Source of the DNA: Ignavibacteriales bacterium | Lineage (GTDB): Bacteria > Bacteroidota > Ignavibacteria > Ignavibacteriales > DAOSCP01 | Assembly (NCBI GenBank): GCA_035379625.1 | Contig: DAOSVM010000003.1 | Coordinates: forward strand, 334-64,333 | Reading direction: 5' to 3' | DNA: 64,000 bases | Part shown: positions 6,875-49,579 of the stretch, piece after piece | Position numbering within the stretch: position 1 is the stretch's first letter | Layout: each line of letters starts with the position of its first letter | Translations under genes and position numbers: made by a program | Notes under the pieces: model-generated | Databases searched by the model: none | Told to the model about the DNA's origin: nothing | The model's input: the letters and a program-made list of their open reading frames with translations, nothing else

Positions 6875-8115
6875 ATGTAAATTTTGTACCTAATAAAAAA
6901 GTTCTTTATATAGATGACGAAGTGCATTTATTACATGCTTTTAAAGCGTTAATGAGAAAACAAGATGTAGAAGTATTTATATTAGAAGATTCTACAAAAT
7001 TTCAAGAAGAAATTGAGAAAAACGGTCCATTTGCAGTAATTTTATGTGATCAAAGAATGCCTGGCATTAAGGGTGTAGAAATATTAGAAAACCTTGCTAC
7101 TACTCATCCCGATACTATAAAAATACTCATTACCGGATTTTCTGATTACAACGATACTTTAAGAGCCATTAATAGTGGAGGTATATCCCGCTATATACAA
7201 AAACCTTGGAATGATGCTGACTTAAAAAATACAATATTAGAAGCAGTAAATAATTATAACCTACTACAAGAAAATAAATACCTTATAGATGAGCTAAAAA
7301 AGAATAATATTTTACTTACCGATCTTATTGATGGTGCGTTGGTTAAAACTGTTAAGCTTTTAAGCGATGTCTCAGGTTTCTCTAATCCTGAAGCAGCAGC
7401 ACAAACTAACCGAGTAAAAAAACTTGGAATGGCAATCCTTGCAACTTATAAAGATTTATCATTTGATACAAAATGGCATATAACTTGTGCATTTGAATTG
7501 TTCAATCTTGGTATTGCTTTATTACCAGCTTGGTTGCAAGTTGCTTTGGCAAAAGGTGGATTAGCTACTTTAAGTCGTTTTCCTGCTGCAAAAAATCATA
7601 ATATACTTGCGGCTAATTTACTTGAAACAATTCCGCAATTTTCTCCTGTTGCTGAAATTATAAAACTATATACAAAAAATTTTGATGGAACAGGTGAGCC
7701 TGAAGATATCAACATATCAGGTGATAATATACCATTTGGTGCTAGATTATTAAATATTGTTATTGAATATGACAGATTAGCAAATGAAAACTTCAAAGGA
7801 GAAGCTGTTCTCCGTGATATGATGCAAAGACCAAATAGACATGATATTAGAATCATAGAGCATATTCTTCAACATTTAAGACCTCAACCTCAGGATAAAT
7901 CTATTATCACACCATCTGAAGAGCCAATTAATTTAACTATTTCACAATTGTTGCCAGGTATGATATTAGCAAACGATATAGTTTCTGAAAATGGAACGAA
8001 ACTTTTAAGTGCTAATACCATTATTAGTGATCTTGAATTGAACTTCCTGAGAATTTGGAGTAGTGCACGAAACGAAAAAATTAAAGAACCTATAACAGTT
8101 CTTTATAAAAAATAA
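6871..8115 (+). CDS. Response regulator, receiver domain fused to a degenerate (probably inactive) HD-GYP-like domain
   Basis: REC motifs (YIDDE, VILCDQRMPGIKG, KPW). The C-terminal region aligns by eye to HD-GYP (FDGTGEP...IPFGARLLNIVIEYDRL) but lacks the HD and HHE metal ligands. Its ATGA start overlaps the upstream gene. Confidence 0.75.
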   Translation: MNVNFVPNKKVLYIDDEVHLLHAFKALMRKQDVEVFILEDSTKFQEEIEKNGPFAVILCDQRMPGIKGVEILENLATTHPDTIKILITGFSDYNDTLRAINSGGISRYIQKPWNDADLKNTILEAVNNYNLLQENKYLIDELKKNNILLTDLIDGALVKTVKLLSDVSGFSNPEAAAQTNRVKKLGMAILATYKDLSFDTKWHITCAFELFNLGIALLPAWLQVALAKGGLATLSRFPAAKNHNILAANLLETIPQFSPVAEIIKLYTKNFDGTGEPEDINISGDNIPFGARLLNIVIEYDRLANENFKGEAVLRDMMQRPNRHDIRIIEHILQHLRPQPQDKSIITPSEEPINLTISQLLPGMILANDIVSENGTKLLSANTIISDLELNFLRIWSSARNEKIKEPITVLYKK

Positions 8116-16715: not shown

Positions 16716-16737
16716 CATGCTTATACTGTCCGAGCTA
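16716..16737. repeat. Solo terminal-repeat copy of the TAGCTCAGAC...TAAGCTTA element family
   Basis: catgcttatactgtccgagcta matches the right terminal repeat of copy A (24103-24124) at 19 of 22 positions. As in copies A and B, an A-run and a terminator hairpin follow it. Confidence 0.7.
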
Positions 16738-16744
16738 AATAGAA

Positions 16745-16773
16745 ATAAAAAAAGCTGCCTTTTTAAGACAGCC
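16745..16773 (-). terminator. Rho-independent terminator of queD
   Basis: On the minus strand there is a 7-bp stem, GCUGUCU/AGGCAGC (one G-U pair), with loop UAAAA and a following U8 run, immediately after the queD stop codon. Confidence 0.7.
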
Positions 16774-23132: not shown

Positions 23133-23546
23133 ATGAAAAAACAAATAAATATCAAGGGTAAAAATATGCAAGTCGAACATTTAACAAAACAAACGTTTCT
23201 TGAAAAAGTTTTCGATTACGAAAACAATAAAGAATGGAAATATCAAGGTAAAGTACCAGCAATTATTGATTTCTGGGCTGAATGGTGTGGTCCATGTAGA
23301 ATGGTAGGTCCAGTTTTGGAAGAATTACAAAAAGAATATGGTGACAAGATTCAAGTTTACAAAGTTAACACAGAAGAAGAACAAGAATTAGCAGCTGTAT
23401 TTGGGATTAGGAGTATTCCATCATTATTATTCGTTCCTGTAGACGACAGGCCACAAATGGCTGTAGGAGCATTACCAAAAGAGACATTTTATGAAATTAT
23501 CAACGATGTTTTAAAAGTTCCAAGACCAATTATAGTAACACCATAA
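23133..23546 (+). CDS. trxA: Thioredoxin
   Basis: WCGPC active site in a thioredoxin fold. The start could be the internal ATG at 23166. Confidence 0.9.
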   Translation: MKKQINIKGKNMQVEHLTKQTFLEKVFDYENNKEWKYQGKVPAIIDFWAEWCGPCRMVGPVLEELQKEYGDKIQVYKVNTEEEQELAAVFGIRSIPSLLFVPVDDRPQMAVGALPKETFYEIINDVLKVPRPIIVTP

Positions 23547-23554
23547 TTTTGAAG

Positions 23555-23582
23555 GCTCTCTTAAAAGGAGAGCTTTTTTTTT
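23555..23582 (+). terminator. Rho-independent terminator of trxA
   Basis: GCTCTC/GAGAGC stem, an A-rich loop and then T9. Confidence 0.8.
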
Positions 23583-23588
23583 ATTTAT

Positions 23589-24124
23589 TAGCTCAGACGG
23601 TGTAAGCTTAAAGCTCGTGCGCACGAAGGCGCACGGGCAGGCTAACGCCAAAAATATGGTAGATTAATTAAAGCATATCTTACATAATATCAACGACATA
23701 CAACATTTATGCATCTACCTAAATAACTATTTATTAAAAATTTTCCAAAGTAATACCAAACTTTAATAATATTAAAATATTTTCGGGATTACAATATAAT
23801 TGTATTTTCGATATATTCACTTGTTCTAAAAATATATTTGTATTTGCAATATAATTGTATATATGATATATCGGCAATTATCAATAATATATTTGTAAAT
23901 ACAATATAATTGTTTTACGATATAATAGAAAATGCAATTATATTACAAAAATAATTGTATCAATTTTAAGCTGCCACGCATTTAAGAAAAATTAGAATAT
24001 TAAGGCCTCAAAGCACCGCTATTTGTAAGGTGTCTAAGAGAAGAGTTTTGCGGGCCGTTCCGGCCCGCTGCCCCTTGCGGCATGACGAATGCCGCAAGGG
24101 GCTAAGCTTATACTGTCTGAGCTA
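23589..24124. repeat. Copy A of a composite intergenic element (22-nt terminal inverted repeats, three GC-rich hairpins, 55-bp phased AT repeats); MITE/BIME/inverton-like, unclassified
   Basis: Terminal inverted repeats are TAGCTCAGACGGTGTAAGCTTA (23589-23610) and the reverse complement of 24103-24124. Hairpins lie at 23613-23638, 24050-24068 and 24070-24102. A second copy is at 48787-49525. There is no credible ORF. Confidence 0.85.
23791..23913. repeat. Three 55-bp-phased repeats, each carrying the palindrome (A/G)CAAT-ATA-ATTGT
   Basis: The palindrome starts at 23791, 23846 and 23901, exactly 55 bp apart. TATATTTG (TAnnTTTG-like) lies at 23833-23840 and 23888-23895, also 55 bp apart. Confidence 0.8.
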
Positions 24125-24143
24125 TATATTTTATTTAATTTTT

Positions 24144-24182
24144 AAAATAAAAAAAGGCAAGCTCGCTTTTTGCTCGCCTGCC
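24144..24182 (-). terminator. Rho-independent terminator of sdhB
   Basis: On the minus strand the stem is GGCAGGC/GCUUGCC (one G-U pair), followed by a U-rich run, about 30 nt after the sdhB stop. Confidence 0.65.
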
Positions 24183-24210
24183 TTAATGATGTACTTTAAT
24201 TACTTCCTAA

Positions 24211-24984
24211 TTATAACTCAACATTATTTGAGCTAAGTTTAGCTTTAATGTATTCACGATTTAATCTAGCAATATGTGAAACTGGAATTCCTTTTGGACA
24301 TTCGGCTTCACAGGCATAAGTATTTGAGCAGTAACCAAAGCCTTCAGCATCCATAGTTTTAACCATCTTTTCAACTCTTTCTTTTCTTTCAACTTGACCT
24401 TGTGGTAAAAGAGCTAATTGGGAAACTTTGGCACTTACAAAAAGCATAGCCGAAGCATTAGGACATGTAGCAACGCATGCACCACAACCAATACAAGCTG
24501 CTGCTTCAAAAGCTTCCAAAGCTGTATCTTTATGAATTGGAATATTATTAGCATCACGTGCAGAGCCAGTATTCACAGAAACATAACCACCAGCTTGCAT
24601 AATTCTATCAAAAGCGGAACGATCAACTACCAAATCTTTGATAATTGGGAATGGTTTAGCTCTCCATGGCTCAATAACAATAGTATCGCCATCATTGAAA
24701 TGTCTCATATGTAACTGGCATGTTGTAATACCTTGTAAAGGACCATGAGCTCTACCATTGATAAACATACCACAGCTACCACAAATACCTTCACGGCAAT
24801 CGTGCTCGAAGGCAATAGGATCTTCACCATTTTTTTGTAACTGTTCGTTAAGAACATCTAACATTTCAAGAAAAGAAGCATCTGTTGAAATGCCAGTTAC
24901 TTTATATTCTTTAAATTCGCCTTTTTTGCTATTTCTTGGCTGACGCCATATCTTTAGTGTTAATGATAATTTCTTGCTAGCCAT
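24211..24984 (-). CDS. sdhB: Succinate dehydrogenase/fumarate reductase iron-sulfur subunit
   Basis: 2Fe-2S ([10 protein letters not shown]), 4Fe-4S ([12 protein letters not shown]) and 3Fe-4S ([12 protein letters not shown]) cysteine clusters. Confidence 0.95.
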
Positions 24985-27565: not shown

Positions 27566-27613
27566 TAAACATCTCCTTGAATTTATTTATTAATTTCCGA
27601 AATAATTTTTTAT

Positions 27614-27664
27614 TACTCTGGCGGTGTAAACCTAACGCACAACCAAAGGTTTTGCGTTTTTTTT
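27614..27664. repeat. Diverged solo end of the same element family (terminal-repeat-like sequence plus hairpin plus T-run) in the sdhC upstream region
   Basis: tactctggcggtgtaaacctaa matches the left terminal repeat of copy A at 18 of 23 positions (one gap, hand alignment). The hairpin AACGCA-C-AACC-AAA-GGTT-T-TGCGTT follows, then T8. Confidence 0.5.
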
Positions 27665-27938
27665 ACAATTCTTGCAGAATAAATTAAATAAACTATTAAT
27701 AAAATTATACAAACACGCTTATTATATTTAAGAAATGTAGCATAATTCCCAAAACATATTCTCCACTAAATATCAAAATTATGCATAAAAGATCATAAAT
27801 ATTTAGTATATTTTAAAACACCAACTTTTTATATAGCAAAAATATCAAATGGATTATAAATATAAATACTTCATACTAATTTAATAATATTATTCCAAAT
27901 ATTTAAAAAATACTAATACCACTCAACAAGGTCCTATA

Positions 27939-45530: not shown

Positions 45531-47156
45531 ATGGAAAATTACACAACCTTTGTTGATAAAGCTTATGATAGTTATTCAAAAAAAGACTTTCATAAAGCTA
45601 TAGAACTAATCAACGAAGCTGAAAAACTTTTACCTAAAGATGCATCTATTACTGAAGGTGCTAGCATCTACAATTTCCGTGGTTTCTGTTATTTATCGTT
45701 AAATGAAATTGAAAAAGCAAAAGCTGAGTTCGAAGAAGCTTTAAACCTAAATCCCACCTCTCCACAAGCTTGTGTCGGTTTAGGTGAAGTTTTTTATTTA
45801 AATCGTAATGATGTTGAAGCAAAAAGAATGTATGAATACGCTTTAAATTACGATCCACAAAATCCACTAGCTCTTGCTGGTCTTAAAAAAGTTAATGCTG
45901 AATTAGGCCTTAATCCAGAAGATAATTCCTTGATAGATAATAAAAATCAAGATTTAATTGATAGCTTAGTTGAAGAAGCATATCAATTATTTAATAAACG
46001 TAAATTTGAAGAAGCACTAATTAAACTTGCTGAAGTTGAAAAATTATATAAAGTCAGAACTGCAGAGGTTGAAAACTTCAAAGGTATTATTTATTTAGCA
46101 TTAAATGACAAAAATAAAGCAAAATTGTCTTTTGAAGTTGCTCTTCAATTAAATCCTAAATCTTCCCAAGCTTGCGCTGGCTTAGGTGAAATTTTCTACT
46201 TAGAAAACAAAGATGAAGAAGCTAAAAAAATGTTCGAATGGGCTGTCTTCCATAATCCTCAAAATCCTATGGCTGTAAATGGATTAGCAAAAGTAAATAA
46301 AGCCCTTGGCAAACCTATTTATGATAACTCTCTTCAAGGTGATGAAATAAAGAAAAAATTAAACTTTGAAGTATTATTCGCTGATGCATATCAGGCTTTC
46401 CAAGATAAAAACTTCAATACTGCATTAGAAAGAATTGAAGAGTTTGAAAAAGCCGTTCGTGTTGCTGCATTAAATTTCAAAGGTTTTAATTATTTAGCAT
46501 TAAATGATATTGAAAGCGCTAAAAAATGTTTTGAAGAAGCTCTCGAACTAGATGAGACATCCTCTCAAGCTTGTGCTGGCTTAGGTGAAATTTTCTACTT
46601 ACAAAAAGATGATGTATCTGCAAAAAAAATGTATGAATTTGCAGTAGCATATAACCCGGAAAATAAATTTGCCATTGAAGGTTTAGCTAAAGTAAACAAA
46701 AGCTTAAATTTACCCAAGGAACATAACAATTTAATAGTTGAAGATATTTTAAGCGATGAAAAATTAGCTGCTATGATTACTCAAGCATATGAAGCTTTCG
46801 ATAAGAAAGATTACAAAGAAGCCTTACAAATTTTAAATGATTTTGAAAATAAAGCAATTGATTTATCAGTATCTGCTGATGTAAGTATTAAAAATTTTAA
46901 AGGCTATATATATTTAGGTTTAGGTGAAACAGAAAAAGCAAAAGAACAATTTGAAAGTGCTTTGGAACTTGACCCTGAATCTTCCCAAGCTTGTGCTGGT
47001 TTAGGAGAATGTCTGTATATTGCTGGTGACGACCAAGCAGCTAAAAAAATGTTTGAGTGGAGCATAAAACATAACCCTGGTAATGAAGTTGCTTACGCTG
47101 GTTTGCATAAGGTAAATAAAAATTTAGGATTGCCTATAAACCATAAAAGTTTCTAA
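45531..47156 (+). CDS. TPR-repeat protein built from four tandem modules of about 135 aa
   Basis: The block SSQACAGLGE(I/V)FYL...AKKM(F/Y)E(W/F)A...NP.N...GL.KVNK.LGLP recurs four times. Repetition is also visible at the DNA level around 45770, 46165, 46565 and 46985. Confidence 0.8.
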   Translation: MENYTTFVDKAYDSYSKKDFHKAIELINEAEKLLPKDASITEGASIYNFRGFCYLSLNEIEKAKAEFEEALNLNPTSPQACVGLGEVFYLNRNDVEAKRMYEYALNYDPQNPLALAGLKKVNAELGLNPEDNSLIDNKNQDLIDSLVEEAYQLFNKRKFEEALIKLAEVEKLYKVRTAEVENFKGIIYLALNDKNKAKLSFEVALQLNPKSSQACAGLGEIFYLENKDEEAKKMFEWAVFHNPQNPMAVNGLAKVNKALGKPIYDNSLQGDEIKKKLNFEVLFADAYQAFQDKNFNTALERIEEFEKAVRVAALNFKGFNYLALNDIESAKKCFEEALELDETSSQACAGLGEIFYLQKDDVSAKKMYEFAVAYNPENKFAIEGLAKVNKSLNLPKEHNNLIVEDILSDEKLAAMITQAYEAFDKKDYKEALQILNDFENKAIDLSVSADVSIKNFKGYIYLGLGETEKAKEQFESALELDPESSQACAGLGECLYIAGDDQAAKKMFEWSIKHNPGNEVAYAGLHKVNKNLGLPINHKSF

Positions 47157-48754: not shown

Positions 48755-48780
48755 GCTCTCTTTCGAAGGGAGCTTTTTTT
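48755..48780 (+). terminator. Rho-independent terminator of the permease gene
   Basis: GCTCTCTT/AAGGGAGC stem (one G-U pair) followed by T7. It resembles the trxA terminator. Confidence 0.75.
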
Positions 48781-48786
48781 ATATAT

Positions 48787-49525
48787 TAGCTCAGACAGTA
48801 TAAGCTTAAGCCCCTTGCAGCTTGAAGAAAGCCGCAAGGGGCAGCGGGCCGGAACGGCCCGCTAAAATGATAAACCCTAACATAAGCAACACCTCAGATA
48901 CTCAGAAAGTTAAACCTAATATGTTATCGACTAAATAAAAATACAATTTTAAGATTACACAAATTCCAAAATTATTACTACAAAAAAGCAAACTCAAATT
49001 TACCATCTTCATAAACGTGCTTACCACTCCCCCGGGCAAAAAAATTGCTTCCGAAATGATAAAAATTATTTTTTTATTTTTATTTGCTGCTAAATTGTTA
49101 TTTCTGCTCTTTTTATAATTTTATTGTAATTAGAATTGTATCGTAAATACAATATCTTTGCCAATAATATATCGTATATACAATAATATAGTAAGAGCAA
49201 ATATATTTTTTGAAATTGCAATTATATCGTATATACAATAATATCGTGGATACAAATATTTTTTAAAGAACTACCAATATATCGTATTCGCAATTATTTT
49301 GTATGGCCTATTATATTGCAATAACGATATTTATTTACTCCCTTTTTACGTAAGCTAATTTTTCATAGAAAAATATTAAAACAACATTTAGTTATTTATT
49401 TAAATGTAAAAATATAAAACATATTGTTCAAATCTATTGAAAGGTCTTGGTGAAAATATTTTTGGGCGTCAGCCCGCCCGTGCGCCGCTCGGCGCACGGG
49501 CTTTATGCTTACACCGTCTGAGCTA
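48787..49525. repeat. Copy B of the composite intergenic element, interior inverted relative to copy A
   Basis: Terminal inverted repeats are TAGCTCAGACAGTATAAGCTTA (48787-48808) and the reverse complement of 49504-49525. Hairpins lie at 48810-48842, 48844-48862 and 49476-49501. The module order is the mirror image of copy A. Confidence 0.85.
49139..49296. repeat. Phased repeats with core TATCGTATATACAATA (three copies at exact 55-bp spacing plus one out of phase)
   Basis: ATCGTA(T/A)A... cores start at 49171, 49226 and 49281, 55 bp apart. A further one-mismatch copy starts at 49140. Confidence 0.8.
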
Positions 49526-49542
49526 ATAAAGAGTACTTTTTT

Positions 49543-49579
49543 AAAAATAAAAAAAGCAAGCTCGCTTACGCTCGCCTGC
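49543..49579 (-). terminator. Rho-independent terminator of the RND pump gene
   Basis: On the minus strand the stem is GCAGGC/GCUUGC (one G-U pair), followed by a U-rich run. By hand alignment it matches the sdhB terminator module at about 41 of 47 positions. Confidence 0.6.

Follow-up and report, generated by a model that had tools for sequence, protein, structure and literature searches.

A lineage-restricted family of modular intergenic repeats with constant inverted ends in uncultured Ignavibacteriales

The 64,000-nt stretch of contig DAOSVM010000003.1 from an Ignavibacteriales bacterium (hereafter, the window) contains, between the convergent genes trxA and sdhB, a non-coding repeat at 23589-24124 that we call copy A. 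This repeat belongs to a previously undescribed family found at more than 100 sites in one lineage of uncultured Ignavibacteriales, and our literature searches for repeats or MITEs (miniature inverted-repeat transposable elements) of Ignavibacteria returned no description of such elements. With about even confidence, we read copy A as a member of a lineage-restricted, non-coding, non-autonomous, large and modular MITE-like family. This reading is supported by the occurrence of the terminal cores above chance, by the copy number, by the fact that the family can be aligned, and by the enclosure of different contents within one set of cores. Further support comes from the non-coding nature of the elements, a difference between the two cores of an element that resembles the one seen in insertion sequences, a bias toward the 3′ ends of genes, the lineage specificity and the conservation of the cores. 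No observation makes the family a new type of biological system; its behaviour is that of a large repeat of the MITE or repetitive extragenic palindrome (REP) type, and copy A lies outside every family that was testable here. Its architecture, copy number, distribution, cargo and pattern of conservation are set out below as observed in the sequences. The family would add a well-defined and abundant repeat to the Ignavibacteria, and it is unusually informative because it is large and modular, has hairpins conserved in structure, keeps its ends constant in old copies and carries restriction-modification cargo. Its main points of interest are the conservation of the ends in place, the re-assortment of outer shell and interior, and this cargo, and two questions follow. 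What keeps the ends of a non-coding repeat constant for so long, and how do its parts re-assort?

Anatomy of copy A and the extent of the family

Copy A occupies the region between the stop codons of two convergent genes (23547-24210), which is organised as follows.

23133-23546, + strand: trxA (thioredoxin gene), ending at 23546
23551-23582, + strand: outer hairpin T1, GGCTCTCTT-AAA-AGGAGAGC with a T9 run, 8 nt before the core
23589-23610, + strand: left inverted repeat, with the 17-nt dyad-symmetric core GCTCAGACGGTGTAAGC at 23591-23607
23613-23649, + strand: inner module hp1, in which a small stem-loop, GGC-TAAC-GCC (23640-23649), comes after a 10-bp GC stem-loop (23613-23638)
23774-23935, + strand: AT-rich centre built on 55-bp phased repeats, which the family consensus retains
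24050-24068, + strand: inner stem-loop hp2, GCGGGCCG-TTC-CGGCCCGC, with an 8-bp stem whose sequence is constant across the family
24070-24102, + strand: inner stem-loop hp3, with a perfect 14-bp stem
24103-24124, - strand: right inverted repeat, with its core at 24106-24122
24147-24184, - strand: outer hairpin T2, GGCAGGCGAGC-AAAAA-GCGAGCTTGCC with a T7 run, 26 nt from the core
24211-24984, - strand: sdhB, ending at 24211

The original prediction, which was made from the window alone, had described a 536-bp non-coding block between convergent trxA and sdhB, bounded by 22-nt terminal inverted repeats and containing stems of 10 bp, 8 bp and a perfect 14 bp around a centre of 55-bp-phased repeats, and nearly all of these sequence features are present where it had placed them. 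The block is non-coding, and the two genes stop at 23546 and 24211. The 22-mer TAGCTCAGACGGTGTAAGCTTA at 23589-23610 returns as its reverse complement, with two mismatches, at 24103-24124, and at up to three mismatches it has four matches in the window, compared with 0.00 expected from shuffled sequences. All three stems fold at the predicted positions; the right module reaches -33.4 kcal/mol (z = -10.6), and the left module has a z of -2.8. In the centre, Tandem Repeats Finder reports 2.5 copies of a period of 55 at 23790-23924, each unit of which holds TATATTTGTA, the palindrome TACAATATAATTGTA and TACGATATA. The element is, in contrast, larger than predicted (23589-24124): the terminator-like hairpins at 23551-23582 and 24147-24184, which serve as the terminators of trxA (T1) and sdhB (T2), are part of what is repeated or, at the least, accompany it.

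A scan of metagenomes with the core pattern found at least 102 further loci, mostly in anaerobic-digester samples, so that the expectation of a dispersed family holds well beyond the window. The scan supplied most of a set of 116 loci (numbered with L below), which also includes hits from a genome collection, and the counts of full elements and solo ends cover these loci and the window (approximately 1 Mb). They comprise at least 81 distinct full elements, defined as core pairs, and approximately 60 unpaired cores. The core pairs span 147-801 bp in 74 of 81 cases, most of them 0.26-0.8 kb with a mode at approximately 530 bp, and seven exceed this range. On single contigs, the density is one element per 10-25 kb. 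Most metagenome loci come from JGI sample Ga0116168, with several on one contig in cases such as a 128-kb contig that has at least five and a 43-kb contig that has four. The thioredoxin protein with its downstream element is also found on contigs from several anaerobic-digester and related metagenomes and in the metagenome-assembled genome (MAG) GCA_964546855.1. In the genome collection, which was scanned with the exact core pattern at one genome per species, the core occurs in only two MAGs. The Ignavibacteriales MAG has four exact matches, and the second, GTDB contig CAYXOL010000098.1 (L013), carries a full element and is binned as 'uncultured Clostridium sp.'; this contig is probably mis-binned, because its flanks are identical to those of JGI contigs L061 and L114, which are Ignavibacteriales-like loci. 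No core was found in 48 kb of relatives at 84-94% protein identity, and a viral collection gave three chance matches only, without any of the modules. With at least 102 loci, core-free relatives and nothing but chance matches in viruses, the family is real, abundant and lineage-restricted, and it offers a ready marker for strain typing.

The shared feature of all these elements is a 17-nt core, GCTCAGAC-R-GTRTAAGC, that occurs in inverted pairs. Across 154 ends, 12 of the 17 positions are 99-100% constant. The core is a near-palindrome, arranged 8-1-8 about a single base, with three mismatches to its own reverse complement. Immediately outward, positions -3 to -1 read TTA (T 77%, T 90%, A 78%), for which TGG is a recurrent alternative, and farther out conservation declines gradually across approximately 10 T-rich positions, with no abrupt boundary. 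Of 71 elements, only 12 carry the same sequence in both cores, and the central base (position 8) agrees in 25 of the 71, compared with an expectation of 34.6 ± 3.8; a systematic left/right difference of this kind is usual between the left and right inverted repeats (IRL/IRR) of insertion sequences. The variable core positions are linked to the adjoining inner module, position 17 most strongly, followed by positions 11, 8 and 4. Likenesses noted by eye, of the core to the ends of Tn3 or IS66 or to dif and of TAGCTCAGACGGT to a tRNA D-arm, were too weak to use.

The copies are old. The consensus of approximately 545 bp aligns over its full length, and no two copies from different loci exceed 91% identity; for the best match of each copy, the median is 79%. 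Despite this age, the 12 constant core positions deviate in at most one of the approximately 77 ends that the search pattern left free. Because decay at the rate of the remaining sequence predicts several deviations per position, the ends have been held constant in place, by selection or by gene conversion. Four Logan contigs from the trxA locus (L004-L007) stop within the left core of copy A or directly behind it. These breaks say nothing about inversion, because the 30-mers at that point are shared with other copies such as L100, in which the T run, the 8-nt spacer, the core and the start of hp1 recur. The family thus fragments assemblies, and it breaks short-read assemblies of digester organisms.

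Inner ends, interiors and cargo

Inside each core lie one large and one small GC stem-loop followed by an A run, and this inner end exists in three to four non-homologous versions. One is hp1, with the stem GCCCGTGCGCC/GGCGCACGGGC followed by GGGC-TAAC-GCCC; in L083, L087 and L102, the alternative stem CCAGCGAGC/GCTCGCTGG is followed by the same trailing GGCTAACGCC. Another consists of hp3 and hp2. The hp3 stem is found in many versions that differ by double compensatory changes (CCCCTTGCGGC, CCCCTTGCAGC, CCCACGTGCGGC, CCCGTTGCAGC and CCGCTTGCAGC among them), which argues that the pairing is maintained and not the sequence. The third type of end reads CCGCACAAC-TGAA-GTTGTGCGG-T6, with a small GCAA/TTGC hairpin after it. 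We considered hp1 and hp2/hp3 as terminators of transcripts from the element and rejected them, because no U run follows them in either direction; only the third-type end contains a canonical terminator, which reads inward.

The interiors are interchangeable and may be of type 1, of type 2 or made up of restriction-modification genes. Type-1 interiors, such as those of copy A and of a second full copy in the window (copy B), contain two to four of the 55-bp units; type-2 interiors consist of a string of GGTGGCA/TGCCACC hairpins. The AT motif TATATCGTATATACAAT is common to both types. Interiors are AT-rich and contain an AT palindrome motif in one to four copies. Among 51 aligned copies, no open reading frame (ORF) is conserved in position or frame, and a small toxic peptide or type I toxin-antitoxin system was accordingly ruled out. 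The original prediction had recognised no known RNA of the Rfam type, and a search agreed: nothing in the window matched at the gathering score, and copies A and B and one type-2 copy gave only chance-level matches at E values up to 5. Type-2 elements at 12100-12478 of L082 and 9796-10112 of L083 represent one locus and differ in length by 62 bp, which suggests an altered number of GGTGGCA hairpin units.

In several elements, the interior carries genes, and these are restriction-modification genes. At 2259-4621 of L055, two cores exactly bracket a 2.36-kb type II pair composed of an N6/N4 DNA methyltransferase with a RAMA domain and an endonuclease of the HpyAIV family. A full-length type I hsdS gene (398 aa) lies between the 55-bp repeats and the hp1 module at 3754-5721 of L029, and at the orthologous thrC-proC locus in L052 (1573-2982) and L089 (467-1877), the element contains half an hsdS gene with one target recognition domain. 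The hsdM gene is found directly outside the hp1 core in L052, L014 and L108 and is absent from L029. In L078, a TdeIII restriction enzyme and a methyltransferase stand beside an element with a disrupted right end, and the block between that end and the gene pair (7000-7660) is GC-richer and looks non-coding.

The search for an autonomous partner covered the translated ORFs of the seven long core pairs and a clustering of 882 ORFs from all loci, with Pfam and NCBIfam run on 35 ORFs inside or beside elements. These ORFs encode only housekeeping proteins and restriction-modification proteins or are artefacts that run through type-2 repeats. No transposase, integrase or invertase gene lies between core pairs, beside solo ends or as a recurrent neighbour in the approximately 1 Mb of loci, and the association with a transposase, a REP-associated tyrosine transposase (RAYT) or a recombinase for which the original prediction had proposed a check did not materialise as any transposase or recombinase gene in that sequence.

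Terminators, shells and copy B

Both neighbouring genes were identified for 53 elements, and these neighbours are convergent in 27 cases, tandem in 22 and divergent in 4. The 3′ end of a gene is faced by 72% of element sides; neither end of these elements is preferentially turned to a gene 5′ end. Approximately half of the ends lie 5-35 nt downstream of a hairpin and T run that read toward the element. Two kinds of these hairpins recur and differ from ordinary gene terminators. For the T2 motif, GCAGGCGAGC-GTAA-GCGAGCTTGC with its conserved linker T7-ATTTTAAAAAATACTCTTCATTA, the window and loci contain 27 matches (24 when three same-locus duplicates of copy A are excluded), all of them 15-34 nt from a core. 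Of these matches, 24 lie outside the core, and three GCCAGC variants (L082, L083 and L087) lie inside, next to it. The T2 hairpin and linker are joined to hp1, hp2/hp3 and third-type ends in similar numbers. For the T1-type hairpin, GCTCYC..GRGAGC-T7, a core comes next in 14 of 14 cases and at exactly 8 nt in 12 of them, whereas 19 of 124 other terminators lie near a core. Neither T1 nor T2 shells occur without a core in the window and loci. A strict scan of the window for a hairpin plus T run found eight canonical terminators, five of which flank cores and a sixth of which is a third-type inner module. Most genes in the window appear to have no canonical terminator, and the family supplies or marks most of those that exist.

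Relatives of the flanking genes end differently. Two sdhB relatives, at 93% and 85% protein identity, have different terminators without T2 or the element; a trxA relative at 94% identity ends with a hairpin of its own and lacks the element; and in relatives of the permease gene next to copy B, the next gene follows within 35-46 nt, again with no element. Because these genes end without it, the element, with at least the T2 shell, is an insertion in the lineage of the window. The exact empty site was not reconstructed, because the synteny on the far side differs in each relative, and the empty sites hoped for in the original prediction were recovered neither from the loci nor from the relatives.

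The window contains one further full copy and two solo ends, as had been predicted; the second solo end is degenerate.

48755-49579, - strand: copy B with its shell, the interior inverted relative to copy A and the shell in the same orientation
48755-48780: T1-like hairpin of copy B
48789-48805 and 49507-49523: cores of copy B, within repeats of the 22-mer at 48787-48808 and 49504-49525
48810-48842, 48844-48862 and 49477-49500: hp3, hp2 and hp1 of copy B
49166-49317: 55-bp repeats of copy B, the same array as in copy A
49549-49579: T2 hairpin of copy B
16716-16772, - strand: solo end, with a core at 16719-16735 (one mismatch) and the 22-mer at 16716-16737 (four mismatches)
approximately 27613-27680, + strand: degenerate solo end of the third type, CTCTGGCGGTGTAAAC, hairpin CGCACAACC-AAA-GGTTTTGCG, T8, ACAATTCTTGCAG

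The solo end at 16716 has an outer hairpin, GCTGTCTT-AAA-AAGGCAGC with a T run (16747-16772), and no inner hairpins. The degenerate end lies upstream of sdhC; its terminator hairpin reads inward, and its inner hairpin differs. The sdhCAB operon therefore has family members at both of its ends.

Copy B, which the original prediction had delimited at 48787-49525 and which is inverted relative to copy A, has approximately 200 extra bp, with approximately 260 extra bp between hp2 and the 55-bp repeats. In direct orientation, the left shells of the two copies share 31 of 43 columns and the right shells share 48 of 65, both far above the values from 500 shuffles; between the cores, however, all of copy B is inverted with respect to copy A. 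How might this arrangement have arisen? Over evolutionary time, the interior may have undergone flipping or exchange at the cores; shell sequence may have passed between loci in conversion tracts that start in the cores; or the element may insert either way into a double-terminator repeat that is always occupied. Within the species, no variation was seen in a check of assemblies: whichever flanking gene served as the starting point, every informative same-species contig has copy A in the orientation of the window, and copy B is identical in the three readable contigs of seven.

A proposed trans-mobilised element and its alternatives

We consider that the family is best described as a non-autonomous, MITE-like repeat. 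Each element has two inverted copies of a putative recognition site of 17-24 bp, TTA-GCTCAGAC-R-GTRTAAGC-WTAA, which is itself dyad-symmetric. The enzyme, the way in which it would move the unit chemically and any role in the host are inferences from the features above. A transposase or recombinase encoded elsewhere in the genome would recognise the core, to which it would probably bind as a dimer, and the stem-loops beside the core would serve as an accessory structure. This enzyme would move the unit, sometimes with restriction-modification cargo, into AT-rich DNA just downstream of intrinsic terminators, and insertions at the 3′ ends of genes would be tolerated. Thereafter, selection, or else gene conversion between copies, would keep the cores and hairpins constant in place, and the elements would perhaps be retained for supplying or protecting terminators and for binding a nucleoid protein. 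By analogy with REP sequences, bacterial interspersed mosaic elements (BIMEs) and Correia elements, a present-day function as protein-binding or insulating modules close to terminators is probable as well.

Three of the five features by which MITEs are recognised are present, namely terminal inverted repeats, a small size without coding capacity, and multiple dispersed copies, the size of 0.26-0.8 kb being at or above the usual upper range. A cognate autonomous insertion sequence with the same ends was not found in the approximately 1 Mb of loci, which include no complete genome. Like the Correia/NEMIS elements of Neisseria and the IS630-derived RUP and Nezha, the family is non-coding, has terminal inverted repeats of approximately 22-26 bp and occurs as many dispersed intergenic copies with no internal transposase and with TA at the junctions; internal protein-binding or promoter-like sequences and an association with terminators are likewise shared. 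The comparison is one of description, and we know of no sequence similarity to Correia/NEMIS, RUP or Nezha; to our knowledge, Correia elements have no cognate transposase. At approximately 530 bp, compared with 100-200 bp, the family is three to five times larger than these MITEs, and it differs in its interchangeable interiors, occasional gene cargo, paired GC stem-loops inside each end, dyad-symmetric ends, absence of a demonstrable target duplication and conservation of the ends in old copies. Some of the MITE properties used here are taken from reviews (PMC3184786, PMC10969869).

Several observations weigh against this reading. Transposase ends are not usually dyad-symmetric, as the core is here. 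No target duplication longer than 2 bp accompanies the elements: no direct repeat of 2-9 bp exceeds that of shuffled pairs at symmetric offsets of 0-12, and the longest direct repeat between the 45-nt flanks equals the shuffled expectation. TA flanks both full copies in the window, as the original prediction had observed, but its tentative suggestion of a TA target duplication was not supported and is doubtful; family-wide, TA is found at approximately 78% of ends, where it alternates with a one-sided TGG, and because TTA...TAA can equally well be read as part of the inverted repeat and the TGG variant is one-sided, the TA is probably part of the repeat. Neither an autonomous partner nor a transposase or recombinase gene was found in the approximately 1 Mb around the copies, and no exact empty site was found by BLAST of joined flanks against all loci or in the relatives of trxA, sdhB and the permease gene. 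Sequences outside the cores repeat too (T1 with its 8 nt and T2 with its approximately 25 nt) and are joined to every kind of inner end. The shells of copies A and B are direct while their interiors are inverted, an arrangement that does not follow from simple cut-and-paste transposition of a unit ending at the cores. Finally, conservation in place of the ends of old copies is unexpected for dead MITEs.

Some of these features would follow if the cores were crossover sites for a tyrosine or serine recombinase acting in trans, with the DNA between them inverted or exchanged among terminator-proximal docking sites, so that non-coding modules and restriction-modification cassettes are shuffled as in invertons, shufflons or pdif modules. 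Such site-specific recombination, which we consider unlikely, would account for the 8-1-8 dyad symmetry, the common T1...T2 shell around inverted interiors, the constant presence of a core beside T1 and T2 shells, the joining of T2 and its linker to hp1, hp2/hp3 and third-type ends alike, the decay of inner-module linkage across the core (17 > 11, 8, 4), the lack of a target duplication, the identity of ends on modules of differing content (restriction-modification cassettes included) and the in-place conservation of the core. As in invertons (the Mpi-dependent switches of Bacteroides) and shufflons, short dyad-symmetric inverted repeats flank a few hundred bp, one repeat family occurs at many loci, an hsdS gene can lie in a repeat-bounded segment, and copies A and B carry their interiors in opposite orientations within one and the same shell. 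Unlike in those systems, each locus has one orientation in the assemblies, the centres of the paired cores differ, there is mostly no gene to switch, and no invertase was found. Of the features that would mark an inverton, both orientations at one locus were not seen in the assemblies, cores that match in full, as an identical crossover region would require, are limited to 12 of 71 elements, and the location of 27 of 53 elements between convergent genes, with no orientation bias toward 5′ ends, speaks against a promoter that switches a flanking gene. Copies A and B are not polymorphic in orientation among same-species contigs, identical cores in only 12 of 71 elements should block recombination if the crossover spans the centre, and no recombinase gene lies nearby. 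In addition, because half of the copies lie between convergent genes, flipping would regulate nothing. The core symmetry is 8-1-8 about a single base, compared with the 11-6-11 of the general consensus for the 28-bp dif site bound by XerC/XerD, and TGTAAGCT resembles XerD arms only weakly, by eye. In the pdif (Xer) modules of Acinetobacter plasmids, as here, quasi-palindromic inverted sites bracket variable modules without a target duplication, the modules are re-assorted between contexts, and the enzyme is encoded elsewhere (PMC6449649, PMC13141974); our family differs in being chromosomal and mostly non-coding, in having GC hairpins beside the sites and in lacking an evident 11-6-11 dif organisation. 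It is similarly doubtful that a chromosome-wide cassette system exists, in which a recombinase acting in trans inverts or swaps DNA between core pairs among more than 100 docking shells. If true, this system would be a chromosomal, mostly non-coding analogue of pdif modules or shufflons that moves insulator modules and restriction-modification cassettes, with the shells of copies A and B and their inverted interiors as its footprint.

Another view is that the element serves the host in a structural or regulatory capacity: as a terminator or insulator cassette, it would be bound by a nucleoid-associated protein at its cores and phased AT palindromes, and ectopic gene conversion, not transposition, would have spread it. 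This view, which we regard as rather improbable, is consistent with the gradual outward decay of similarity from the core, with shells, terminators included, that are common to unrelated loci, with the flanking of cores by five of the eight canonical terminators of the window, with cores that are constant against approximately 20% divergence elsewhere and with a 55-bp phase of about five helical turns. Gene conversion, however, would have required each of more than 100 unrelated intergenic sites to hold a homologous acceptor beforehand; at the same genes, relatives lack the element and end in ordinary terminators, which means that the DNA came in by insertion, and the core-bracketed restriction-modification cargo points to mobility. 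A REPIN- or BIME-like element, spread by a single-copy domesticated HUH transposase of the RAYT type that acts on the GC hairpins as single-stranded DNA, and thereafter vertically inherited and maintained over the long term, would fit the structure-conserved GC stem-loops next to a conserved motif, the inverted pairs, the lack of a target duplication, the extragenic copies, which number in the hundreds and have a 3′-end bias, the maintained ends of old copies and the narrow, lineage-specific distribution. These traits match published properties of REPINs, namely inverted REP pairs, a single-copy RAYT and persistence (PMC3116915, PMC3337134, bioRxiv 10.1101/2022.05.22.493013), and REP, BIME and REPIN sequences are in general extragenic, biased to 3′ ends, built of inverted GC-rich palindromes as mosaics of a few module types, free of target duplications, persistent, lineage-specific and present in hundreds of copies (PMC3116915, PMC3337134). 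Yet a REPIN is an inverted REP pair that forms one hairpin of approximately 100 nt, whereas here 300-600 bp of conserved AT-rich interior lie between the ends; the motif is a 17-nt dyad that looks double-stranded and not a GTAG-type tetranucleotide at the foot of a hairpin; and gene cargo is not a REPIN feature. Neither a RAYT gene flanked by the repeats nor a Y1 transposase gene flanked by cores was seen in the loci, and we find this explanation similarly improbable. A multicopy small-RNA gene or cis-regulatory RNA, with central promoters and a transcript of approximately 170-250 nt that ends at hp2/hp3, is more improbable still, to the point that we give it very little credence. Boxes like the Bacteroidetes-type -7 element (TATATTTG) occur in each 55-bp unit, the 3′ hairpins are very stable with compensatory changes, and the block TTTGTAAGGTG upstream of hp2 is conserved, but neither an Rfam covariance-model match nor a U run in either direction accompanies them. 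Furthermore, the same ends can instead enclose genes or an interior of an unrelated type, the more than 100 copies occur in either orientation without a strand bias relative to their neighbours, and the hsdS cargo of L029 reads opposite to the putative promoters.

Another repeat was also observed in the window. The ORF at 45531-47156, which encodes a 541-aa TPR-repeat protein (Pfam TPR), contains at 45671-47120 four internal repeats of approximately 229 nt, spaced at approximately 400 bp and 65-72% identical.

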